Assembly: GCA_043781315.1 (NCBI GenBank)
Contig: JAYWBR010000248.1
Span: 1-36,705 of the forward strand
Reading direction: 5' to 3'
From: Verrucomicrobiota bacterium
GTDB taxonomy: Bacteria; Verrucomicrobiota; Verrucomicrobiia; Limisphaerales; CAIQOK01
DNA: 36,705 nt
Below, in pieces: positions 17,212 to 36,705 of this stretch. The notes beneath the pieces were generated by a model, which was not told where the DNA came from, did no database searches, and saw only the letters and a program-made list of their open reading frames with translations. Numbering within the stretch: position 1 is the first letter of the stretch; every line of letters starts with the position of its first letter. Position numbers and translations under genes: made by a program.

Positions 17212-18666
17212 GTGACCAACAACCATACCAAGTTTTTTTCCTGCCTGCGTTTGCTGGTGCTGCTGACCCTCTGGCAGGCGGGGGACATTTTTGAAGCGCG
17301 TGCCCAGAATTTTCCCCTCACGGTGCGGACCAGCCCCACCAATGCAGTTCAGGTCGGCTCCACCGTGACGTACACCATCGGGGTGTCGAACTTCTCCAGC
17401 TTTGATGTCAGCGCGGTCATCGTCACCAACACCTTGGCGGCCTCGGTGCAATTGACCGGACGGACCACCACGCAGGGAACGGTGGCCACGAATGGCTCGT
17501 CGTTGGTGTTTTTCATCGGCCTCGTTCGCGTGGGATCCAGTGCGGTGATGACGGTCACCGGCATTCCAACCGTGGCCGGGTTCTTCACCAACCAGGTTTT
17601 CTGTTTCGCCCCGCAACTGACCAATCTGCTCACCAAGACGGTCTTTTCCCAAGCCACTAACCCCGTGGTGGTGTCCGATCTGGCGGTGATGCTCGGCACG
17701 CCGGCATCGCCCGTCTTTACCGGCGATTGGATCAGCTACCGCACCGGGGTCACCAACCTCGGGCCCAACACCGCGCCCAACGTGGTGCTGACCAACACGC
17801 TGCCCGTCGGCACTAAATTACTTTCCGTCTCACCAGCCTCCCAGACATTCCAACTTGTCAGCAACCAGTTGACGTTCCCGATCACCTCGCTGGCCAGCAA
17901 CGCGTTCACCAATTTCGTTTTGCGCGTGCAACTGCCGACCAATGCAGGTGCCGCGCAGTTCACCGCGTCGGCCGGTGCGGGCGGCGCGACCGATCTCAAC
18001 CCCGCCAACAACACCGCGACCAACAGCGTCAACATTGCCGGTTATTTTCCCGTCACGCTGCTGGCCGTCACCAACGCCCCGCAGTACACGAACCGGCAAA
18101 ACGGTTTGATCGAGCAGAAAATTCTCGTGTCGAACGTCGGCACTGCGTCCGTGGACTCCGTGCGCGTCATCCTGACTGGCCTGACGAATGTGCCGCTGGC
18201 CGGCTACACCAATTATTTGTTCAACGCCACCGGCACCAACGCGGGCAGCCCCTTCGTGGTTTACCCGGCCACCTTGGACACGAACAGCAGCGTGGAATTG
18301 CGGCTGCAATTTTACGTGCGCACCCGCAGCACGTTTCCCTTCGGCAATTCGCAATTGCACGCCGTGGGAGTCAGCCCGCCTGATTTGACGCCGCCACCCG
18401 CCGTCGGCACCAGCACGAATTTTCATTTCAGCCGGAATGCCCGGCTGTCCACCGGCGAACATTTTTTGGAAGTCAGCAACACCATCGCGGGCCAGGTTTA
18501 CACGATTGTTTACAGCGACGATCCCTTGTTCTCGAACGCCCAGATGGCCCTGCCGCCCATTGTGGCCCCGGCCAATTTCTTCCAGTGGCTGGACTACGGG
18601 CCGCCGGCCACCGTGAGCAAGCCCGGCTCGAATCCGCGTTTTTACAAAGTCTTTCTCAACCCCTAG
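17212..18666 (+). CDS. Secreted DUF11 (conserved repeat domain) protein with a C-terminal RFYKV tail
   Basis: The start is GTG and the signal peptide contains FFSCLRLLVLLTLWQAG. There are two DUF11-like repeats (VGSTVTYTIGVSNFS...VTNTL and GDWISYRTGVTNLGPNTAPNVVLTNTLP). Confidence 0.75.
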   Translation: MTNNHTKFFSCLRLLVLLTLWQAGDIFEARAQNFPLTVRTSPTNAVQVGSTVTYTIGVSNFSSFDVSAVIVTNTLAASVQLTGRTTTQGTVATNGSSLVFFIGLVRVGSSAVMTVTGIPTVAGFFTNQVFCFAPQLTNLLTKTVFSQATNPVVVSDLAVMLGTPASPVFTGDWISYRTGVTNLGPNTAPNVVLTNTLPVGTKLLSVSPASQTFQLVSNQLTFPITSLASNAFTNFVLRVQLPTNAGAAQFTASAGAGGATDLNPANNTATNSVNIAGYFPVTLLAVTNAPQYTNRQNGLIEQKILVSNVGTASVDSVRVILTGLTNVPLAGYTNYLFNATGTNAGSPFVVYPATLDTNSSVELRLQFYVRTRSTFPFGNSQLHAVGVSPPDLTPPPAVGTSTNFHFSRNARLSTGEHFLEVSNTIAGQVYTIVYSDDPLFSNAQMALPPIVAPANFFQWLDYGPPATVSKPGSNPRFYKVFLNP

Positions 18667-18672
18667 CCCGCC

Positions 18673-19707
18673 ATGCCGCCGAATATTTTCAACTCTTCCA
18701 TCCGCCTCGGTACCCTGGCGCTGCTGGCCGTGACCGCCGGACGCGCGCACAGCCAGGCGTACGACCCGGACTGGACGCGCACCTTCCGCGCCGGCGTGCT
18801 TGTCGGCTTCAACCTCAAGGCCAGCTTCAGCATGAAAGGTTCGTTCGGCATCTCCGGCGGCGGCGCAGGCGTGTACGATGATGGTTACGTCCGCCCCGAT
18901 GCCGGCGGTGCGCTCACCTCGGACTGGGGATACAAAAACGGGACGCAGTACGATCCCGCCACCGAGACGTTGACGATGCATCTTTCCACCGCCTTCAACA
19001 CCACCGGTTCCGCCAGCGTGAAGGATTCGGCGGACATCGGATTGGATCTGGCCTACGGCGGCACCTTCACGCGCGGGGAACGCTTTCGCCTCGGCTGGGA
19101 ATTGGGTTTTGGTTTGTTGCCCATCAAGATTTCCGACCGCAGCACTTTGTCGGCAACCGTCTCCCAGTCGGCCTACAAATTTGACGCCAGCGGTTACGTC
19201 ATCGGCACCGACAACACGTTTCCACTCCCGGGCTGGCATGGCTCGCCGAATTCCCCGGGTGGCGCAACGATTGGCTCGGCTCCCGCCATGACGCCACTGC
19301 CGGATATTCCCAACGTCCAGGTCATCGGCAGCCGCACGCTGGATGTAAACTTTTACGCGATCAAGCTGGGGCCGACCCTCTTCTATGACCTCAGCCCGAG
19401 CATTGGTCTTTCCCTGGGCATCGGCCCGGCGCTCGGCATTGTTTCCGGAAATCTTAAATACAACGAAACCCTGAACTACGCCGGCGGCAGTTCGCACAAC
19501 GTCGGCGAAGTTGGCTCCACCAAGCTGACCTTCGGCGGTTACATCAACGGCATGATCACCTTCCACACCGTGCAAAACGGCGACTTCTACATCGGCGCGC
19601 AATACATGCCCATGGGCAAGGTCAACATGGGTGGCGGCGGACGCAACGCGCGCCTAGACTTGAGCGGCCAAGTCTATCTCACCGCCGGCATCAACTGGCC
19701 GTTCTGA
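18673..19707 (+). CDS. Outer-membrane beta-barrel protein (hypothetical)
   Basis: The signal peptide is MPPNIFNSSIRLGTLALLAVTAGRAHS. Alternating hydrophobic beta-strand periodicity is present, with Gly-rich loops and a C-terminal ...GINWPF ending in Phe. The start lies 6 nt after the DUF11 gene. Confidence 0.65.
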   Translation: MPPNIFNSSIRLGTLALLAVTAGRAHSQAYDPDWTRTFRAGVLVGFNLKASFSMKGSFGISGGGAGVYDDGYVRPDAGGALTSDWGYKNGTQYDPATETLTMHLSTAFNTTGSASVKDSADIGLDLAYGGTFTRGERFRLGWELGFGLLPIKISDRSTLSATVSQSAYKFDASGYVIGTDNTFPLPGWHGSPNSPGGATIGSAPAMTPLPDIPNVQVIGSRTLDVNFYAIKLGPTLFYDLSPSIGLSLGIGPALGIVSGNLKYNETLNYAGGSSHNVGEVGSTKLTFGGYINGMITFHTVQNGDFYIGAQYMPMGKVNMGGGGRNARLDLSGQVYLTAGINWPF

Positions 19708-19770
19708 TCCGGGATTTTTTCCGGCGGCTGCCCGCTCGACTTCACCCGCCTGCGTGCTAACTTCTCCGCC

Positions 19771-20799
19771 GTGAACACTCTCGTCGTTGGACTCATCAGC
19801 GCCTTGATCGCCACCAACCAGGCCGTGGCCGTCAGCAACCTCGTCACCCAAACCACCGGCCTCACCGTCGCCGTGCCCGACCCCAACGACCCGGTCGAAA
19901 AAGAATTCAAGAAAGTCGAGACCGCCGATGACGAGGCGCAGGCCGAGGTGGACGGCTGGCTCAAGGACAACAACGTGTTTGCCGCGAAAGGCGGCGGCCT
20001 CCCCGAGGCCGAGATGAATCGTCGCATCACCAAACGCTTCGCGCCCGTGCGCCAGGGCTACGAGGATTTCATCAAGCTCCACCCCAACCACGTCAAAGCC
20101 CGGCTCGCCTTCGCCAGCTTTCTCGACGACATCCACGACGAGGACGGCGAGATGGAGCAGTTGGAAAAAGCCCACGAGCTGGATCCCAAAGATCCCGCCG
20201 TGTGGAACAACATGGCGAACTATTACGGCCACAACAGCCCGGTGAAGAAGGCGTTTGAGTATTACGAGAAGGCCATCGAACTCGATCCACACGAACCGGT
20301 TTACATCCAGAACTTCGCCACCACCGTCTATTTGTTCCGCAAAGACGCGGCGGAATATTACCACATCAACGAGCAGCAGATTTTTGACAAGGCGCTCGCG
20401 CTCTACGCCCAGGCGCTCAAGTTGTCCCCGACCAATTTTCCCCTCGCCACCGATCTCGCGCAAAGTTATTACGGCATCAAACCCGTCCGCACCGCCGACG
20501 CCCTCCGCTCCTGGACCAACGCGCTGGCTATCGCCCACGACGAGATCGAACGCGAAGGCGTCTATCTGCATCTCGCGCGCTTCAAATTAAACGCCGGCAT
20601 GTTCGCCGAAGCGCACGCGCACCTCAATGACGTGACCAACGAAAACTTCACCGAGTTAAAAACCCGGCTCACGCACAACCTCGAAGAACGCGAACGCGAA
20701 GCGAAAGAAACCAACGCCACCAAGACGGTCACCACGAAACTTGATTCCGCCACCAACTTCCCTGCCCCGGTGCCCCAGCTTCCGCCGGAGAACAAATAA
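19771..20799 (+). CDS. TPR-repeat protein with an N-terminal signal or anchor
   Basis: The start is GTG. TPR-like helices are visible (AVWNNMANYYGHNSPVKKAFEYYEKAIELDPHEP, ALALYAQALKLSP). The N-terminus is hydrophobic (LVVGLISALIA). Confidence 0.75.
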   Translation: MNTLVVGLISALIATNQAVAVSNLVTQTTGLTVAVPDPNDPVEKEFKKVETADDEAQAEVDGWLKDNNVFAAKGGGLPEAEMNRRITKRFAPVRQGYEDFIKLHPNHVKARLAFASFLDDIHDEDGEMEQLEKAHELDPKDPAVWNNMANYYGHNSPVKKAFEYYEKAIELDPHEPVYIQNFATTVYLFRKDAAEYYHINEQQIFDKALALYAQALKLSPTNFPLATDLAQSYYGIKPVRTADALRSWTNALAIAHDEIEREGVYLHLARFKLNAGMFAEAHAHLNDVTNENFTELKTRLTHNLEEREREAKETNATKTVTTKLDSATNFPAPVPQLPPENK

Positions 20800-20894
20800 A
20801 CCGGGCTGGTTAAGTGATGCGGTCGGGAGGGTCTTGCAAAGGCTTCAAAGCATGGGAAGCTGACTTTGAACAGCCGCAAGGAAAGAGGATTACG

Positions 20895-21602
20895 ATGAAC
20901 AATAAGTGCGTCAGAAAAATTGGATGCCTATGCATCGCGTTCATAATCGGACTGCACGAGTCGGCAGTTTTGGCCGATACATTGGCGTTCACGAGTGGTG
21001 GCTACACGACCAATCAACCAGTAAACTTTACCGGCACCCGAGGCTGGGATTTTTTCAATAGTAGTCCGTACGGTTCCAGCAACTACATGGCCGTTACCCA
21101 ACTAGGCGTCTTTGACCAAGGTGGCGATGGTCTGGCTAATTCCCACGAGATCGGAATCTGGGCCGCTAATGGAACCTTGCTGGCGTCCACGACGATTCCC
21201 GCCGGCACGGTGGCTCCGCTGGTGGATGGTTACCGCTATATGCCGATTACCCCCGTGTTGCTCCCGCCCAGTGCCTTCCCATCACCGCACCCTTTCATAG
21301 TGGCTGTGGCCGCCGCCTACTTAGCGGGTGATGCGGATGACCTCGTCACACCACAATACGGCGGATTATCGGATCTGGTATTTCTATCAAGCTATGATGG
21401 AAGTAACTCACATGGCTTTATCGGCGGCGGCCCAGGTCTGCCCTTCCCTGGCGGCCATTTTGTGGCACCGGAAGGCAGTGGCAGCCCCGCATTGCTGGAA
21501 GTGAACTTCCAATTCAACATCGTCCAAGTGCCCGAGCCTTCCGTGTCTCTCCTGCTTGCGCCCGGCTTGCTAGCACTGTATTTGCACCGGCGGCAGCGCT
21601 AG
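20895..21602 (+). CDS. PEP-CTERM sorting-domain protein
   Basis: ATG at 20895 is preceded by GGAAAGAGGA. The signal peptide is MNNKCVRKIGCLCIAFIIGLHESAVLA. The C-terminus VPEPSVSLLLAPGLLALYLHRRQR has the PEP motif, a TM helix and a basic tail. GC is visibly lower than in neighbouring genes. Confidence 0.8.
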   Translation: MNNKCVRKIGCLCIAFIIGLHESAVLADTLAFTSGGYTTNQPVNFTGTRGWDFFNSSPYGSSNYMAVTQLGVFDQGGDGLANSHEIGIWAANGTLLASTTIPAGTVAPLVDGYRYMPITPVLLPPSAFPSPHPFIVAVAAAYLAGDADDLVTPQYGGLSDLVFLSSYDGSNSHGFIGGGPGLPFPGGHFVAPEGSGSPALLEVNFQFNIVQVPEPSVSLLLAPGLLALYLHRRQR

Positions 21603-26678: not shown

Positions 26679-28436
26679 ATGTCCTTTGTAACCCTTAAAG
26701 ATTTTTTCGCGCAGCTGGGGCTGGTGACCCCGGCGCAGTTTGACGAGCATAGCAAGGCCTGGCGCGTGGCGGTGGAAAGCGGTTCACAGGAGTCGCTGCT
26801 CGGTTTCATCTGCCGCGAACGGGGCATGGCCGAGGACGTTTTCCTCCAGAAACTTTCCGCCGCGCTCAACTGGCCCTTCCTGGATCTGCCCAAGCTCGAA
26901 ATCCCCTTGCCGGCCCGCACCAAAATTTCCACCAAGGTCGCCTTCCAATATTCCGTCCTGCCCACGAACCTTGTGGACGGCACCGTGCAGGTGGCCGTCA
27001 GCAATCCGTTCGACACCGCCATGCTCAACGCCGTGCGGTTCGACGCGCGCGGCCCGGTGCATTTCGCCCTCGCGCCCAAGGCGGAAATCGAAAAGGCGCT
27101 GAAAAAATATTACGGCGTCGGCGCGGAGACCCTCGACGAAATGAAGGACGCCAGCGAGGACGAATCGCTGGAACTGCTGCTCGGCGACAAGGAAATCACC
27201 GAGGGCGACCAGGAAGCCAGCGTCATCAAGTTCGTCAACCAGGTCATCTGGGAAGCCTTCAAAGACCGCGCCACGGACATTCACCTCGAACCGCAAGAAG
27301 ACGAGCTGCGCATCCGCTACCGCATTGACGGCATCCTGCACCAGACGCCGATGCCGCCGCAGTTGAAGCGCTTTCAGTCCTCCATCATTTCGCGCATCAA
27401 GGTCATGAGCGGGATGAACATTTCCGAAAAACGCCTGCCGCAGGACGGTCGCATCAACGTCCGCATCAAGGGCGAGGAAATTGACATCCGCGTTTCCACC
27501 GTGCCGACCGTCTATGGCGAATCGGTTTCGCTGCGCTTGCTGACGCGCGGAAAAATTTTCCTGAGCCTGGAGAAGCTCGGCTTTGCCGCGAAGGACGAAG
27601 CGATGATCCGCGAGATCATCATCAAGCCGCACGGCATTTTCCTCGTCACCGGCCCGACTGGCTCCGGCAAATCCACCTCGCTCTACGCCTTTCTCAGTTC
27701 CATCAACTCGATCCAGAAGCGCATCATCACGATTGAGGAACCCGTCGAATACGAACTCAAAGGCATCAACCAGATCGCTGTGCGTCCCGAGATCGGCCTG
27801 ACCTTCGCGATGGGTTTGCGCCATATTCTGCGCCAGGATCCGAACGTCGTGATGATCGGGGAAATCCGCGATTTGGAAACCGCCGAGATCGCCATCCGCG
27901 CGTCGCTCACCGGCCACTTGGTCTTCAGCACGCTGCACACAAACGACGCGTCCAGCGCGTTCACGCGGTTGATTGACATGGGCATCGAGCCGTTCCTCGT
28001 GGCGTCGTCCGTCGAAGCCGTCATGGCCCAGCGCCTCGTCCGCATCATTTGTCCGCACTGCAAGGTGGAGCAGAAAGTTTCCGCCGATTACATCAAGAAG
28101 ATCGGCTTTCCCGAACATGAAGTCGCCACGACCAAGTTCATGCGCGGCGTGGGCTGCGAAGAATGTCGTCAGCTTGGCTATCAGGGACGCAAAGGTATTT
28201 ACGAATTGCTTATTGTCACCGAAGCCATTCGCCCGCTCGTGATGAATCGTTCGTCGGCCACGACCATCGCGCAGCACGCCATCGAAGCCGGTATGAGAAC
28301 GCTCCGCACCGACGGCTGGAACAAAGTCAAAGGCGGCCAGACCACCATCGAAGAAGTTTTGCGCGTGACGCAGATCGAGGAACATCTGGACTCGCTGGCC
28401 GAAGGCTCCAACAAATTGCTAAGAACCCAGAGCTAG
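26679..28436 (+). CDS. gspE: Type II secretion / type IV pilus assembly ATPase (GspE/PilB family)
   Basis: An N-terminal T2SSE_N-like domain is present. The Walker A motif is GPTGSGKST, the Walker B-like motif is VVMIGEIRD and the His box is GHLVFSTLHTN. The tetracysteine motif is CPHC...CEEC. Confidence 0.92.
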   Translation: MSFVTLKDFFAQLGLVTPAQFDEHSKAWRVAVESGSQESLLGFICRERGMAEDVFLQKLSAALNWPFLDLPKLEIPLPARTKISTKVAFQYSVLPTNLVDGTVQVAVSNPFDTAMLNAVRFDARGPVHFALAPKAEIEKALKKYYGVGAETLDEMKDASEDESLELLLGDKEITEGDQEASVIKFVNQVIWEAFKDRATDIHLEPQEDELRIRYRIDGILHQTPMPPQLKRFQSSIISRIKVMSGMNISEKRLPQDGRINVRIKGEEIDIRVSTVPTVYGESVSLRLLTRGKIFLSLEKLGFAAKDEAMIREIIIKPHGIFLVTGPTGSGKSTSLYAFLSSINSIQKRIITIEEPVEYELKGINQIAVRPEIGLTFAMGLRHILRQDPNVVMIGEIRDLETAEIAIRASLTGHLVFSTLHTNDASSAFTRLIDMGIEPFLVASSVEAVMAQRLVRIICPHCKVEQKVSADYIKKIGFPEHEVATTKFMRGVGCEECRQLGYQGRKGIYELLIVTEAIRPLVMNRSSATTIAQHAIEAGMRTLRTDGWNKVKGGQTTIEEVLRVTQIEEHLDSLAEGSNKLLRTQS

Positions 28437-28502
28437 ATGAAAAACACCCACCGACAACTCCGACCAATGTCAAAAGCAGAAGGCCGAACGCACGGCGCGC
28501 GT

Positions 28503-28532
28503 TTCGTCATTCGTCATTCGTCATTCGTCATT
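28503..28532. repeat. Tandem heptamer (TTCGTCA)x4 plus a partial unit
   Basis: Four exact contiguous 7-nt units span 28503-28530, followed by TT. The tract ends 8 nt before the ATG at 28540. Confidence 0.9.
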
Positions 28533-28539
28533 TCCTGAT

Positions 28540-29907
28540 ATGCCCCGCTGGGATTCCTGCAACCTACTTCAAGCCGGCCTGAACGGCAGCCGCGTCTGGC
28601 AGTTCAACAAGAACGGCTCATTGAACCGCGAGCACGCCGGCAAGGCGGGTGAACCGCTGCCCGCCGGTCTCATCACCAAGAGCTGGGGCGCGCTCGTTCA
28701 GAAAAAAATGAACGTCGCCTGGCTCCCGCCGGAACACGTCTTCATCCGCGCCGCGCAATTTCCCCCGGCCTCGCCCGCCGAGACGCGCACGATGGTCGAG
28801 TTGCAGTTAGAAAAACTTTCGCCCATTCCCGTCACCCAGGCCGTGTGGAGCATGCACCTCCTGCCCTCGGCGAAACCCGACGGCCTCCAGACCGTCATCC
28901 TCATCGTCGCCGAACGCAGCGCCGTGGAAAAATATCTTGGCCAGCTCGAAGGCCAGGGTTTCATGGCCGACCGGCTTGAACTGCCGATGCTGGATCAATT
29001 GCTCGCCACCAAGGTGGAGGGCGACGGCGCGTGGATCTTTCCCGAAAGCCCGAACTCCGCGCTCGTCGCCTGGTGGTACGGCGGCACGTTGCAAAGCGTT
29101 GGATTGATCGCGGTCGGCACCGCCGAAAACCGCGCGGCCAGCTTGAAAGATCAGCTCGTTCACATGGCCTGGGCCGGGGAACTCGACGGCTGGATCACCT
29201 CGCCGCCGGACTGGCAGCTCGTGGCGGACGCGGCGTCTGCGGGCGAATGGGAATCTCCGTTGCGCGAAGGTCTCGGCACGCCGATAAAAACCATCACGCC
29301 CATTGCTCCCGCCGACCTTGCCGCCCGCACCGCCAAGCGCGTCGCCGAATCCACCGACGATTTGAATCTGCTCCCGCCGGAGTTTGCCAAACGCTACCAG
29401 CAGCAGTTCGTGGATCGCCTGTGGATGCGCGGCCTGGGTGCGGTCCTCGGCCTTTATCTCATCGGCTGCCTGATCTTTTTTGTGGCCGCCGGCGTGTTCG
29501 ATCATCAGACCGCCAAGCAGGAGCAGACCGTGGCGGAACGCTGCTACGACTACACCAATTCCCTCCAGCTCAAGGCGCGCTTCGACGTTCTCAAAGACCG
29601 GCAGGCGTTGCGATTTGCCGCGCTGGACTGCTGGGAAGCCGTCGCCGAAAAAATTCCGTCGGGCGTCACGGTGGATTCCATGAACTTCAACGACGGCAAA
29701 CGCATCCGGCTTGACGGCACCGCGCCGCTCTCTCAGGTGAAAGAAGTGATTGAGTTTAGCGGCAATGTCCGCAAGGCCTCTACGGCTGAAGGTCAGGAGC
29801 TGTTCAACCGAAACGGCGGCGACCCGTTCTCATACAACGCCAACCAAGACAAGGACGCAATCCGATGGAACTTTGGGTTGGAGTTGAAAAAAGGGGAGGT
29901 GGAATGA
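28540..29907 (+). CDS. GspL-like assembly protein: a PilM-type cytoplasmic domain fused to a PilN-type NLLP/TM/periplasmic domain
   Basis: The N-terminal roughly 270 aa have a PilM/GspL-like pattern (VELQLEKLSPIPV..., VILIVAERSAVEKYLGQLEGQGF, LELPMLDQLL) but no obvious DxG phosphate-binding motif. This is followed by DLNLLPPEF (nt 29365-29382), a TM helix (about nt 29425-29496), a coiled coil and an alpha/beta domain. Confidence 0.7.
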   Translation: MPRWDSCNLLQAGLNGSRVWQFNKNGSLNREHAGKAGEPLPAGLITKSWGALVQKKMNVAWLPPEHVFIRAAQFPPASPAETRTMVELQLEKLSPIPVTQAVWSMHLLPSAKPDGLQTVILIVAERSAVEKYLGQLEGQGFMADRLELPMLDQLLATKVEGDGAWIFPESPNSALVAWWYGGTLQSVGLIAVGTAENRAASLKDQLVHMAWAGELDGWITSPPDWQLVADAASAGEWESPLREGLGTPIKTITPIAPADLAARTAKRVAESTDDLNLLPPEFAKRYQQQFVDRLWMRGLGAVLGLYLIGCLIFFVAAGVFDHQTAKQEQTVAERCYDYTNSLQLKARFDVLKDRQALRFAALDCWEAVAEKIPSGVTVDSMNFNDGKRIRLDGTAPLSQVKEVIEFSGNVRKASTAEGQELFNRNGGDPFSYNANQDKDAIRWNFGLELKKGEVE

Positions 29908-30545
29908 ACACTTATCTTTCAAAATTAAATTCCAGCGAGCGCCGCTTCGTCGTCGCCGTGGGCATGGCGTTCTTTCTCGTCATCAATATATTCTGGGTCT
30001 GGCCGCACTTCTCCGATTGGAGCGTCATCCGGGGCCGGCTTGACGCCGCGAACGCCACGTTGGCGACTTTCGATGCAGCGTTTCAAAAGACCAACGACAT
30101 CGCAAAAGAAGTGGAAAAAATGCAGCGCGGCGGCGGCAATGTTCCGCCCGAGGATCAGGCCGTGGCGTTTCAGCAGACGATCCAGGGACAGGCCGCGCAA
30201 AGCGGCGTACGGGTCGGCGGCACCGGCCGGCTCATCACCCGCACCAACCAGTTTTTCATGGAGCAAATCCAGACCATCACCGTGGCCGCCGGGGAAAAAC
30301 AACTCGTGGATTTTCTCTACAACCTCGGCTCCGGCGACTCGCTCGTGCGCGTCCGCGATTTGTCCGTCCGCCCGGATCCGCCGCGCCAGCAGTTGCAGGC
30401 CAACATCACCCTGATCGCCAGCTACCAGAAAAATGTCAAGGTGGCCGCCGCGCCCGCCGCCAAACCGGTGGCTGCACCGGCTCCGCCCAAAGCCGCGCCG
30501 CCCGCCGTGCCGGATACTTCCAAACCCGCTACTCCGAAGAAATAA
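29904..30545 (+). CDS. PilO/GspM-like bitopic inner-membrane protein with a Pro/Ala/Lys-rich C-terminal tail
   Basis: ATG at 29904 overlaps the upstream stop (ATGA) and is preceded by AAGGGGAGGTGG. The architecture is a short N-terminus, a TM helix (FVVAVGMAFFLVINIFWVW), a coiled coil and a ferredoxin-like segment (QLVDFLYNLGSGDSLVRVRDLSVRP...ANITLIASY). The stop overlaps the secretin start (TAATG). Confidence 0.6.
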   Translation: MNTYLSKLNSSERRFVVAVGMAFFLVINIFWVWPHFSDWSVIRGRLDAANATLATFDAAFQKTNDIAKEVEKMQRGGGNVPPEDQAVAFQQTIQGQAAQSGVRVGGTGRLITRTNQFFMEQIQTITVAAGEKQLVDFLYNLGSGDSLVRVRDLSVRPDPPRQQLQANITLIASYQKNVKVAAAPAAKPVAAPAPPKAAPPAVPDTSKPATPKK

Positions 30546-32761
30546 TGAAAAAGTCACTCGCCTTCCTGCTCCTGCTCGTGGCCGTCTCCTGTTCGCAGAC
30601 CCCGACCAAGCGCGCCTCCAAACACCCGGCGGCCACCGCCCCCGACTTTTCCGCGACCAGCGGCCTGAAGGTCATTGCCGGCACCAACGCCAGTTTGGAA
30701 ACGATTCATCCCGACAAGGCCGAAGCCGCCGCGCCCGCGCATGTTGACACTGCGCCGGTTGCAACCAATGCGCCCACCCTGAAGGTTTCAGTCCCCGCAC
30801 CCGCCGTCCCGGCCGTCGCCGAAGAGATGATTCCCGCCGGCACGATCAATTTTCCAGCGGCGGATTTGAAAGAGGTCTTGAAAATTTATTCCGAGCTGGT
30901 GAACCGCACCATTTTGCAGCCGGCGAACCTTGGCTCGCCGCAGATCACGTTGAAGACACAGACGCCGCTCACCAAGAAAGAGGCGCTCTCGGCATTTGAA
31001 GCGGTGTTCGCGCTGAACGGCATTTCCCTCGTCAACATTGGCGATAAGTTTGTGAAGGTTGTCCCCGCCGCGCAAGCCCACACCGAAGGCGCAGTCAATG
31101 ACACGCGCACGGCGGCGGAACTCCCCGACCTCGGCCAGTACCTCACGCACGTCGTCCAGTTGAAATACACCAAGCCCAGCGAAATGGTTCCCGCCCTCCA
31201 GCCGTTCGCCAAATTGAATTCCATCCTGCCGATGGACGGCAGCATGATCCTCATCATCCGCGACTACACGGAAAACGTGAAGCGCATGTTGGAAATGATT
31301 GACCAGATTGACGTGAACGTGCCGTCGGAATTCGTCTCCGAAGTCATCCCGATCAAATACGCCAAGGCCAGCGAAATGGCGGATGCGTTGAACAGCCTCG
31401 GCGCCAGCGGTGGCGGTGGCGGCGGCAGCGTGGGTTCACGCGGCAGCAGCACGCGCGGGGCGACTCGCTCCACCACCACCGGTGCCTTCAACCGCACCGG
31501 GGCCAGCGGCGGTTTCGGCGGCGCTTCGCCGTACGGCGGCCAGGGCGGCCTCGGCGGCCAACCCGGCGGGATCGGCGGCCAGCCCGGTGGCCAGCCCACC
31601 AGTTTCACCGACCGTTTGTCCAAGCTGATCAGCAAGGCGTCCTCCTCCGGCGACCTCCAGCTTTTCGGCCAGATGAAAATGATCGCCGACGAGCGCTCCA
31701 ACTCGCTGCTCATCTTCGCCACGCGCCCGGACATGGAAATGATCAAGAGCGTCATCGCCAAGCTGGACGTGGTGCTGGCGCAGGTGCTGATCGAGACGGT
31801 GATCCTGGACGTGCAGATCGGCAACGGCTGGAATTACGGCATCAGCGCCGGCCAAAATCCCCGGAACTTCACGCAAGGCTCCAACATCGTCGGCACCATT
31901 GGCGGCACGGCCAATTCTTCCGGCGGCAGCCTGGACACGCTGGCCAAATTTTTTGGCAACACGTTCGTCTCGAATTCCTCCACCGCTTTCCCGGCGGCGG
32001 GCGGGCTTAATTACTTTGGCCGTTACACCGGCAACATTGACGTGGCCGTGCAGGCCGCCATCTCCTCTGGTCGCGCGAACGTCGTGCAGCGTCCGCAAAT
32101 CCTCACCACACACGCCACCGCCGGCTCCATTTTCATCGGCAGCACGATCCCGTACGTCACCAGCAGTTACGGCGGCGGCGCTTACGGTTCGGGAAATTCC
32201 TACCAGCAGTTGCAGGTCGGCATCGGCTTGAACGTGACGCCGTACATCAATCAGGACGGCCTCGTGGTGATGCAGATTGACGAACAGATCAACGAACTCA
32301 GTGCCAAGTCCACCACCATTGCCGGCGTCGGCGACGTGCCCAACACCGTCAACCGCACGCTGTCAGCGGAAGTGGCCGTGCGCGATGGCGACACCATCAT
32401 CCTCGGCGGCTTCATCCGCAACTCCGACAGCAAGGCCGAATCCGGCGTGCCGATCTTGAAGGACATTCCCCTGCTCGGCGAACTGTTCAAGAGCAAGTCC
32501 GACACGAAGGAACGCAAAGAACTGCTCGTGCTGATGAAACCCACCGTCCTCCGCACCCCGGAACTGGCCGCCCAACACACGGCGGAAATGAAAAACCATC
32601 TGCCCGGCGTCCTGCGCGCCGAGGCCGAATTGAAAGCGGATGAACAGCGGCAACTGGATGAGGATCGCAAAGTGGTGCGCGCCGAACAGCGGAAAGCCGC
32701 CGCGCGCAAAGCGAGATACACGCCGGAAGAAAAGGCCTACGAAGACAGCAAGCCTAAATAG
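30545..32761 (+). CDS. Secretin (GspD/PilQ family), probable lipoprotein
   Basis: A lipobox-like signal is present (LLLLVAVSC). N-domains are visible (INFPAADLKEVLKIYSELVNRTIL, VVQLKYTKPSEMVPAL, VIPIKYAKASEMADAL). The secretin core shows VLIETVILDV, RPQILTTHATAG, VTPYINQDGLVVMQI, GDTIILGGF, SGVPILKDIPLLGELF and ELLVLMKPTVL. Confidence 0.9.
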   Translation: MKKSLAFLLLLVAVSCSQTPTKRASKHPAATAPDFSATSGLKVIAGTNASLETIHPDKAEAAAPAHVDTAPVATNAPTLKVSVPAPAVPAVAEEMIPAGTINFPAADLKEVLKIYSELVNRTILQPANLGSPQITLKTQTPLTKKEALSAFEAVFALNGISLVNIGDKFVKVVPAAQAHTEGAVNDTRTAAELPDLGQYLTHVVQLKYTKPSEMVPALQPFAKLNSILPMDGSMILIIRDYTENVKRMLEMIDQIDVNVPSEFVSEVIPIKYAKASEMADALNSLGASGGGGGGSVGSRGSSTRGATRSTTTGAFNRTGASGGFGGASPYGGQGGLGGQPGGIGGQPGGQPTSFTDRLSKLISKASSSGDLQLFGQMKMIADERSNSLLIFATRPDMEMIKSVIAKLDVVLAQVLIETVILDVQIGNGWNYGISAGQNPRNFTQGSNIVGTIGGTANSSGGSLDTLAKFFGNTFVSNSSTAFPAAGGLNYFGRYTGNIDVAVQAAISSGRANVVQRPQILTTHATAGSIFIGSTIPYVTSSYGGGAYGSGNSYQQLQVGIGLNVTPYINQDGLVVMQIDEQINELSAKSTTIAGVGDVPNTVNRTLSAEVAVRDGDTIILGGFIRNSDSKAESGVPILKDIPLLGELFKSKSDTKERKELLVLMKPTVLRTPELAAQHTAEMKNHLPGVLRAEAELKADEQRQLDEDRKVVRAEQRKAAARKARYTPEEKAYEDSKPK

Positions 32762-33300
32762 CCGTTACTCAACTAGGGGTCTTTGATAGTGGTGGCGATG
32801 GCTTGGTCAACTCCCACGCCATTGGCATTTGGGCGGCTGACGGAACTTTACTCGCATCCACAACGATTCCCGCAGGCACGACGGCTTCGTTGGTGGATGG
32901 CTACCGCTATATGCCGATCACACCGGTATTAATCCCGCCGGGAGCTTTTCCAATTCCTTCGCCTTTCAAAGCGCTCGTGGCCGCCGAGTACGTTGTGGGC
33001 GACACGGATGATCTTGTGACACCAACTGGCGTGTTCGGCAGCGGATATGCAGCGCCAGTGGCAGCAACCAGCTATGATGGTAGCCCATCCCAAGGTTTTT
33101 ATGGCCTTGGAACGGGTTCGCCTTTTCCCAGTCAGCATCTATCCGCACCGGAAGGTGGTTTTACTTTTCCATTTTGGGAAGTGAACTTTCAATTCAACGT
33201 CGTCCAAGTACCCGAGCCTTCCGTGTCCCTCCTGCTTGCGCCCGGCTTGCTTTATCTGTTCCTGCGCCGTCGTCATTTTTTGAGGCGGTTACACGGATGA
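32761..33300 (+). pseudogene. 5'-truncated paralog of the PEP-CTERM gene at 20895-21602; it lacks a start context and a signal peptide
   Basis: Nucleotide and protein homology to 21090-21602 begins at 32761 (AVTQLGVFD...), and the frame is closed by TAA at 32755-32757. The only available start is an internal TTG at 32803. The C-terminus VPEPSVSLLLAPGLLYLFLRRRH is an intact PEP-CTERM motif. Confidence 0.7.
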
Positions 33301-35617: not shown

Positions 35618-36705
35618 TTAAAAATGGCGGCCTAGGGAAAGCGAGAGGGTGGGGATGAACAACTGGTATTTGCCGTTGGCGGTCTGGCCGGTGAACGGGT
35701 TGGGCTGGTCGTTGCTGATCGTCCGGGCCGGGCCGCTGATCAACTGGCCGGCCAGCGCCCAGTGCCAATGTCTGCCCTGGTGGCCGACCCCCAGGCAGCC
35801 GACATGCAGCGCGGTGTCGGGAATGGCGGGGGTGAAATTCTTTTCCGAGGCGGTTTCGGTGCAGTAAAAATATCCCGCGCTGGCAAACCAGCCGTGTTCA
35901 AAATAACGGGTGATCCCGAATTCATAAAACCAACTGTCGCGCCAGTTGAGCTGCAAGGGCAGATCGAAGCCGAAAATATTTTTGGTGCCGCCCAACGTGA
36001 CCGTTTGCAGGGGCCGCCAGTCGCTCCAGTCCACATCCACTTCCAGATTCCATTTCGGCGTGGGCCGCTAGGAGATGCCGGCGGAAATAATTTGCGGGAA
36101 CGGCGCCCGGGCCACGGTGTACGCTTCCCGCCGGGTTGCACTGGAATCGTAACTGGTGACACCCCGGAATTTCATCGAGGTGGCGCTGCGATAGTTGGCG
36201 CCGAAGGACCATTGGGGATGCGGCTGCCAGAGCAGTCCGGCGTTGAAGCCCGCGTCATAATCGCTGCCTTCAAAATTGAGCGTGTCGCTGGCGGTGGCGA
36301 GGCCGCGCCGCAACTGGAGCTTGGCGTAATTCACGGTCAGCCAACGGCGAGCGAGAGTTGCGGCGTGATTTTCCAGGCGATGACGGGATTGAAGGTCAGG
36401 TATTGCAGGCGGGACTCAATGGCGAGCGAGCGGAAACTGGAATTTTCCGGCCACTCGACACCGAGGCCGAAGGGCGCGTAAAGACCGAGGCCAAAGGAGA
36501 GCGGGAGGTTGGTGGGCGAATAGGTGCAATAGAGTTGCGGGATGGGCAGGACTTCAAATTGGGAACGGGTGATCGCGCCGGCCGGGGCTTCGTAGCGGGT
36601 GTTGATGCCGAGATAATTCAGAACGCCAAGCTGCACATCCACGCCGGGGAGTTGCGTGATGCCGGCGGGGTTGTAGTACAGCGCGGACGGATTGTCGGCC
36701 GTGGC
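35618..36705 (-). pseudogene. FadL/OMPP1/TodX-family outer-membrane transport protein, 5' end beyond the window, disrupted
   Basis: Three consecutive ORFs (36337-36705 open to the window edge, 36068-36334, 35618-36040) read through as one FadL-like barrel: ...NPSALYYNPAGI..., alternating strands, and a terminal ...SLGRHF. There is a frameshift at about 36337-36345 (GCC GTT GGC TGA where ...GGC CTG ACC GTG... would keep the frame) and an in-frame TAG at 36068-36070. Confidence 0.72.

Follow-up and report, generated by a model that had tools for sequence, protein, structure and literature searches.

The stretch of DNA considered here (the window) comprises 36,705 nucleotides of the forward strand of contig JAYWBR010000248.1 (assembly GCA_043781315.1) from a Verrucomicrobiota bacterium. 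Between positions 26679 and 32761 it carries a block of four genes, all in the same direction (+), whose products resemble components of type II secretion systems (T2SS) and of type IVa pili (T4aP). We refer to these genes and their products as E (the ATPase), L (a protein of 455 residues), M (a GspM/PilO-like protein) and D (the secretin). The block is made up as follows:

26679..28436, + strand: E, GspE/PilB-type assembly ATPase of 585 residues (Pfam, NCBIfam, motifs)
28437..28539, + strand: E-L intergenic spacer with a heptamer tandem array at 28503-28532 (Tandem Repeats Finder, TRF)
28540..29907, + strand: L, predicted GspL-like bitopic protein of 455 residues (AlphaFold2 model, Foldseek, topology)
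29904..30545, + strand: M, GspM/PilO-like bitopic protein of 213 residues (Pfam T2SSM)
30545..32761, + strand: D, GspD-type secretin of 738 residues (Pfam N0, Secretin_N, Secretin)

A preliminary description of this DNA had read the block as an ATPase gene, an L-like fusion of PilM and PilN, a PilO/GspM-like gene and a secretin gene, packed with overlapping junctions into a single translationally coupled unit. The map of open reading frames (ORFs) and the profile searches confirm the four co-directional genes. Of the overlaps, those between L and M (ATGA, 29904-29907) and between M and D (TAATG, 30543-30547) are there as described. The one between E and L is not: E stops at 28436 and L starts at 28540, which leaves a gap of 103 nucleotides, and coupling across all four genes is not supported. 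The start of L at 28540 is also the one picked by the gene callers of two public assemblies, and it opens the protein with MPRWDSCN, in line with an N-terminal consensus MARW.SCN that is kept in all 30 aligned homologues. An ATG at 28437 was considered as the start of L or as a gene in its own right and was rejected, as it opens an ORF of only 33 codons that shows no conservation. Database entries in which L has 570-740 residues probably owe their length to a start codon set too far upstream, within the 3' end of E.

Three of the four products are identified by sequence profiles, in agreement with the preliminary calls. E matches the Pfam family T2SSE with an E-value of 3.6e-137 and MshEN with 1.1e-14, has no membrane segment and carries the canonical motifs of the GspE family, that is Walker A (GPTGSGKS at 325), the Asp box, Walker B, the His box and the tetracysteine motif with CxxC pairs at 458 and 493. 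Among the NCBIfam models it scores 616.7 bits against GspE, 13 bits short of the cutoff of 630, and 586 bits against PilB (cutoff 675). M passes the threshold of Pfam T2SSM (29.2 bits, cutoff 27.8), also matches T2SSM_b, reaches 49.4 bits against the NCBIfam model GspM_XpsM (cutoff 60) and has its membrane segment at residues 15-33. Its best matches among PDB sequences are PilO proteins, if weak ones, and no PilO family is found among its Pfam matches at E-values up to 0.1. D, finally, shows the domain order of a GspD secretin, with an N0 domain, two Secretin_N stretches and a Secretin domain (4e-44), and scores 330 bits against GspD (TIGR02517, cutoff 351) and 189 bits against PilQ (cutoff 284) in NCBIfam.

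Some features of M and D stand apart from these assignments. The C-terminal tail of M is rich in Pro and Ala (KVAAAPAAKPVAAPAPPKAAPP...); over about 35 residues (window 30430-30545) it is rich in Pro, Ala and Lys and matches no known domain. This tail could extend to the peptidoglycan or to the secretin and thus replace the absent GspC/PilP connector. D begins with MKKSLAFLLLLVAVSC, and its signal peptide ends in Cys16 (...LVAVSC; window 30545-30595), so D may be a lipoprotein and a self-piloting secretin. The linker between its N domains comprises about 70 residues of Gly/Ser/Pro-rich, low-complexity sequence encoded by short tandem repeats (window 31400-31600). In two relatives, cited here like all related loci by number, D is directly followed by another secretin paralogue, which is about 1,400 residues long and has a long N-terminal extension ahead of the N0 domain (L029, 10156-14376; L026, 14334-18491).

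L is the product that the profile libraries do not name: the window protein has no Pfam or NCBIfam match at an E-value of 0.1 or below. It has a single membrane segment, at residues 302-320. A first AlphaFold2 (AF2) model of L, built on 30 close homologues, reached a predicted local distance difference test (pLDDT) score of 64 and gave poor template modelling scores (TM-scores); a second one, to which 11 distant homologues (22-46% identity) were added, reached 81.2. In the AF2 model residues ~1-270 form two RNase-H-like halves (beta-beta-beta-alpha-beta-alpha-beta-alpha) with an inserted domain. The membrane helix follows this cytoplasmic part and is itself followed by one long helix to about residue 370, and residues 377-449 fold as beta-beta-alpha-beta-beta into a ferredoxin-like periplasmic domain of the PilN type. 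When the model was compared with the PDB by Foldseek, the top matches were PilM structures (2ych, 1.1e-11; Pseudomonas aeruginosa PilM, ~1e-10), the next were cytoplasmic domains of GspL (4pht_X, 9.6e-10; 1yf5, 1.9e-9; 5tkw, 2.2e-8) with target-normalised TM-scores of 0.52-0.56, and FtsA ranked after both. The model with pLDDT 64 yielded the same fold families. In its domain sizes and in the absence of the 2B insertion L is closer to GspL than to PilM.

Profiles begin to respond when the relatives of L are included. The C-terminal domain matches the Pfam model PilN in 14 of 36 members of the L family (best E-value 2.9e-7), and distant relatives give sub-threshold matches to T2SSL (1.4e-4) and PilM_2 (1.8e-4) over residues ~65-150; when the L-family profile is run against PDB sequences it finds only PilM, with an E-value of 0.85, over that same region. 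The T2SSL profile does not detect the window protein, and an hhalign comparison of L with a single Escherichia coli GspL was not significant. Measured against GspL, L thus fits in fold and topology, while the T2SSL profile is silent on the window protein and stays below threshold in the relatives. Taken together, the predicted fold and the weak but coherent profile matches in relatives indicate that the proposed L-like, fused PilM-PilN assignment holds, and that L would be a GspL-like protein which current profile libraries cannot see. It would also be a member of a large family. A search of a large protein collection returned 2,961 significant relatives, all of them without Pfam domains and all named hypothetical wherever the source gives a name, and an exhaustive search of cluster representatives yielded at least 1,446 clusters at 50% identity (E-value up to 1e-3). 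A tblastn search of PLSDB with L gave no match.

The block is conserved as a unit. The order E-L-M-D is found in 74 of 83 related loci, and in the remaining nine a contig end truncates the block; it is not a chance arrangement. Throughout these 83 loci L-M and M-D mostly overlap by 4 nucleotides, whereas the gap between E and L ranges from 0 to about 150 nucleotides. Relatives of L are encoded in 327 GTDB species representatives; the best 80 of these are mostly titled Verrucomicrobiota, Limisphaerales or subdivision 3, with a few under other names, and among the distant cluster members the only one with an organism name belongs to the Verrucomicrobiota as well. The suggestion of a Verrucomicrobia-wide occurrence is thereby borne out. 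Three relatives at 22-32% identity possess the same block among entirely different neighbours, no flanking gene family is common to more than about a third of the loci and no fifth conserved gene of the block was found across the related loci. The four genes thus form an old and autonomous unit without a fifth conserved partner. Our literature searches turned up no account of it.

Where, then, are the parts that a machine of this kind would need in addition? As had been noted from the sequence, the 36.7 kb of the window hold no platform protein (F, that is GspF/PilC), pilin or prepilin peptidase: a Pfam scan of every long ORF gave no match to T2SSF or to A24 prepilin peptidases, and a search for class III signals in all possible ORFs of at least 60 residues gave six matches, which belong to two ORFs with alternative starts and none of which is followed by a hydrophobic helix. 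In the source organism no F is encoded on either side of L (28.5 kb upstream, 17.8 kb downstream), and an added 6.4 kb of downstream sequence from the source contig carries genes for sensor kinases, DnaK and a sigma factor. That F, pilins and peptidase are missing near the block is a feature kept throughout the clade. E. coli GspF, a probe that recovers plasmid-encoded F proteins of Deinococcus (6e-21) and Nitrospirota (5e-28), has no match among all ORFs of the 83 E-L-M-D loci, nor among those of 84 further loci (80 PilT-centred ones of the same clade from metagenomes and four distant ones), and no related locus, the window included, contains a GspO-like ORF. In all, 171 loci with 2.35 Mb were scanned for F, covering the neighbourhoods of the block and of PilT with a reach of about 10 kb.

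One could take this to mean that we are dealing with a machine genuinely reduced or re-wired, which does without a GspF platform and works with an unrelated membrane partner or on a substrate other than pilins. None of the 171 loci contains F, the block is autonomous and has no fifth conserved partner, and a genome paper on Opitutaceae lists only GspD, E, G and O (PMC8636102). However, if one or two F genes were placed at random in a genome of about 5 Mb, about one match would be expected in the scanned loci. Because neighbourhoods were sampled, the observed zero is roughly what chance would give and applies to loci rather than to whole genomes. Moreover, every type 4 filament system shares four components, namely pilin, peptidase, ATPase and platform, and none is known that lacks a platform protein (PMC10191384); prepilin-type proteins occur in relatives and need such an apparatus; and E retains all canonical ATPase motifs. 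We therefore consider a machine without a platform very improbable. The preliminary description had offered two readings, a split-locus machine and a reduced module with a different fibre or substrate; the former is the one favoured here, and nothing was found that supports the latter. The Verrucomicrobiota literature contains, as far as we found, no statement on the location of F/PilC or on the content of T2SS and pilus genes.

Genes of type IV filaments do occur in the relatives, one at a time. They encode a stand-alone PilT-like ATPase of 362 residues (for instance L088, 10001-11086; L023, 19808-20896), and on the 104-kb JGI (Joint Genome Institute) contig Ga0196970_1000163 it lies 22 kb from an E-L-M-D block (L088; L170, 8150-14286). 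In the sequence available around this gene (up to 10 kb on each side), the 80 PilT-centred loci contain no GspF-like ORF and no second E-type ATPase, and 53 kb of the source contig showed no PilT-like ATPase. Relatives likewise have single N_methyl+DUF1559 proteins and single small N_methyl pilins, and one relative has an N_methyl protein 1 kb after the secretin. Where such prepilin-type proteins occur, a peptidase and a platform for assembly are to be expected.

Such findings may be taken to suggest that the block supplies the components PilB, PilM/N, PilO and PilQ of a type IVa-like retractile pilus which serves adhesion, twitching or DNA uptake and not protein secretion, and whose PilC, PilD, pilins and PilT are encoded elsewhere. 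Besides the PilT-like ATPase, seen in one case on the same contig, and the small N_methyl pilins, this idea draws on the PilM proteins that head the fold matches of L and the PilN model matched by its periplasmic domain, on the PilO proteins that lead the PDB sequence matches of M, to which a distant homologue adds a faint PilO annotation, on the alignment of E with the PilB model of NCBIfam over residues 34-565, almost end to end, and on the fact that T4aP genes are typically dispersed (PMC6668835). Yet D is considerably nearer to GspD than to PilQ and has the N0 domain and the several N domains of the former, M passes the T2SSM threshold without any PilO family among its Pfam matches, PilM and PilN are fused as in GspL, the block has no PilP gene and the GspE model outscores that of PilB. 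It is these five points, the secretin scores, the T2SSM match, the fused L, the missing PilP and the higher GspE score, which make us lean towards a T2SS; a pilus seems to us unlikely, though by no means negligibly so.

We thus think it probable that the E-L-M-D block provides the motor and the scaffold across the envelope for a T2SS-type machine, a member of the type IV filament superfamily, whose remaining components are encoded elsewhere in the genome. This split-locus arrangement is favoured because relatives keep their type IV filament genes as singletons, because a platform is found in every type 4 filament system and because the split T2SS of Legionella provides a precedent. In the machine that we envisage, the actin-like domain that L exposes to the cytoplasm would tether a hexameric ATPase of the GspE type to the inner membrane, the periplasmic PilN-type domain of L would pair with the GspM-like protein and the GspD-type secretin would form the channel in the outer membrane. 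These contacts within E-L-M-D are predicted ones. The GspF/PilC platform, the prepilin peptidase and the (pseudo)pilins would be encoded at other sites of the genome, as in Legionella; that F and the peptidase exist there is presumed on the grounds just given. Protein secretion would be the likelier output as compared with the display of a pilus.

Several observations weigh against such a T2SS-type machine. E, M and D each stay just below the NCBI equivalog cutoffs, by the scores given above (616.7/630, 49.4/60 and 330/351, respectively). The N-terminus of E has the length of that of PilB and is about 80 residues longer than the GspE model. A profile made from four F proteins of four phyla, which scores its own members with 537-614 bits, found no match at an E-value of up to 10 in the 2.35 Mb of related loci. 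Furthermore, E. coli GspC as a probe detected no GspC in any of the loci, and the block holds no PilP-type connector either. Finally, PilT occurs in relatives, and a retractile pilus accounts for it more readily than a T2SS does.

With the T2SS (Gsp/Pul/Eps/Xps), more precisely with its inner-membrane subcomplex GspE-GspL-GspM and the secretin GspD, the block shares the best scores of E, M and D, which go to the GspE, GspM (XpsM) and GspD models, and the build of L with an actin-like cytoplasmic domain lacking the 2B insertion, one membrane helix and a ferredoxin-like periplasmic domain. It also shares the position of L between E and M and the L-M and M-D overlaps, which are as in tightly coupled gsp operons. 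Different from these systems, it has gspC, F, G-K and O neither within the operon nor, for any relative, less than 10 kb away from it, its L is missed by the T2SSL profile and carries a periplasmic domain that matches PilN, its E is extended at the N-terminus and its D has a signal peptide that ends in Cys and a Gly/Ser-rich linker. The functional Lsp T2SS of Legionella pneumophila is encoded at five loci, namely lspC, lspDE, the monocistronic lspF, lspGHIJK and lspLM (PMC6617341), shares pilD with a pilus and has been found to have all 12 components. With its dispersed genes, with F alone and D and E together, it sets a precedent for a split E-L-M-D; however, D-E and L-M are separate there, while E, L, M and D form one operon here.

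The T4aP set PilMNOPQ plus PilB resembles the block in that the cytoplasmic fold of L is closest to PilM (2ych, 5eou) and its periplasmic domain belongs to the PilN family, in that M is a member of the PilO/GspM superfamily and in that the operon closes with a secretin gene; moreover, the genes of T4aP are normally scattered, usually over multiple loci (PMC6668835). It differs in that the block has PilM and PilN in one chain, no PilP and a GspD-type secretin with a PilQ score far from its cutoff, and in that the ATPase gene lies inside the block operon and not in a pilBCD unit. The locus Amuc_1098-1102 of Akkermansia muciniphila, which had been named in the preliminary description for its similar layout, comes from the same phylum, combines a secretin with PilM-like and PilO-like neighbours and has no adjacent platform gene. 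Amuc_1098 is a secretin of 907 residues with an N-terminal TPR/BAM-like domain (TPR, tetratricopeptide repeat; PMC4960237). D reaches only 53.5 bits against its family model (NF042912, cutoff 750), and that over the last 66 residues, and for L and M the Amuc_ family models of NCBIfam yield nothing at an E-value of 0.1 or below. No ATPase gene is described for Amuc_1098-1102, whereas E is present in the block. A relationship between the two is thus unsupported, and the resemblance, as judged from these comparisons of sequence, is one of layout only. The chlamydial T2SS (gspD-E-F-G) is T2SS-like and comes from the same Planctomycetes-Verrucomicrobia-Chlamydiae (PVC) superphylum. Denise et al. 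classed it as generic because GspL and GspM were not recognised in it, and F and G are reported to be kept beside E (PMC6668835). The E-L-M-D block is complementary to it, with L and M present and F and G absent from the locus.

A very large and dispersed repertoire of pseudopilin-like N_methyl/DUF1559 proteins is typical of the PVC superphylum. One may speculate that E-L-M-D is the sole machine with an assembly ATPase and a secretin in these Verrucomicrobiota, serving these dispersed proteins or working without a canonical GspF platform, and that the L family is the missing GspL of other T2SS-like systems of the PVC superphylum, such as the chlamydial one; we regard this bolder version as improbable.

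Upstream of the block, at 17212-20799 of the window (4261-7858 of L170), lies a trio of genes for a DUF11/CLIPPER repeat protein with a signal peptide, a protein of 344 residues and a TPR protein. The protein of 344 residues ends in GINWPF and is like an outer-membrane beta-barrel. TPR lipoproteins act as pilotins of T4aP secretins. It could be argued that the trio is functionally tied to the block, with the TPR protein as pilotin and the DUF11 protein as cargo or fibre: a homologue of the TPR gene lies about 5 kb upstream of the block, in divergent orientation, in 29 of 84 related loci, and in L170 the trio directly adjoins E. However, only about one locus in three has the trio near the block, distant relatives lack it, TPR matches are promiscuous, the pattern may reflect inherited synteny of a subclade, and the TPR protein of the window has no evident lipobox. 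We therefore judge such a tie improbable.

The spacer between E and L has a peculiarity of its own. In the window it contains a perfect array of TTCGTCA, repeated 4.3 times (TRF), which the same contig from another sample carries with one unit fewer (3.3 times), and a relative that is 87% identical has two different heptamer arrays at this position. Relatives show other heptamer or octamer arrays between E and L, the unit sequence of which varies by species while periodicity and position are kept. Besides that of the window, the spacers on which these observations bear include:

L001, 9905-10000
L004, 5252-5346
L061, 9907-10000
L042, 1591-1684

Among 30 long spacers of relatives there are 11 in which a pair of reverse-complementary arrays would form one long hairpin much more stable than expected by chance, with predicted energies of up to -45 kcal/mol and z-scores down to -6.1 relative to shuffled sequences; the window spacer has a single array and no hairpin. 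The spacer has no match in Rfam, and a scan for sigma-70 promoters was uninformative.

Downstream of the block, an ORF at 32803-33300, which starts 42 nucleotides after the stop codon of the secretin gene and is missing from public gene calls, is a 5'-truncated paralogue of a PEP-CTERM gene at 20814-21602 (67% amino acid identity). The two are part of direct repeats of about 510 nucleotides (window 32754-33300 and 20814-21602) which are 76-84% identical and lie 11.67 kb apart; the downstream copy begins at the very end of the secretin gene. Between them lie the genes from the Mur ligase to MBL (metallo-beta-lactamase) together with E-L-M-D. The repeats suggest a past duplication or rearrangement. 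Further downstream, at 35618-36705 on the - strand, a gene for a FadL/Toluene_X outer-membrane transporter is broken into three ORFs of 140, 88 and 176 residues. It is equally broken in L001, L002, L168 and L169, that is in every assembly of the region that was read, and is likely a pseudogene.

What is new in these findings is a large family of GspL-like proteins that sequence profiles do not see, in an E-L-M-D operon conserved across the phylum; the mechanism proposed for it is a known one and does not change the view of how such machines work. The family of the protein of 455 residues, so far labelled hypothetical, can now be named GspL-like (a PilM-PilN fusion), and the annotated genes for GspE, GspM-like and GspD proteins of soil Verrucomicrobiota can thereby be read as belonging to one machine. 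Detection tools which require co-located F and pilin genes, or a T2SSL match, would miss this system or assign it to a lower class phylum-wide. Soil Verrucomicrobiota are major degraders of polysaccharides, and the route by which they secrete proteins thus matters for the interpretation of their extracellular enzymes.

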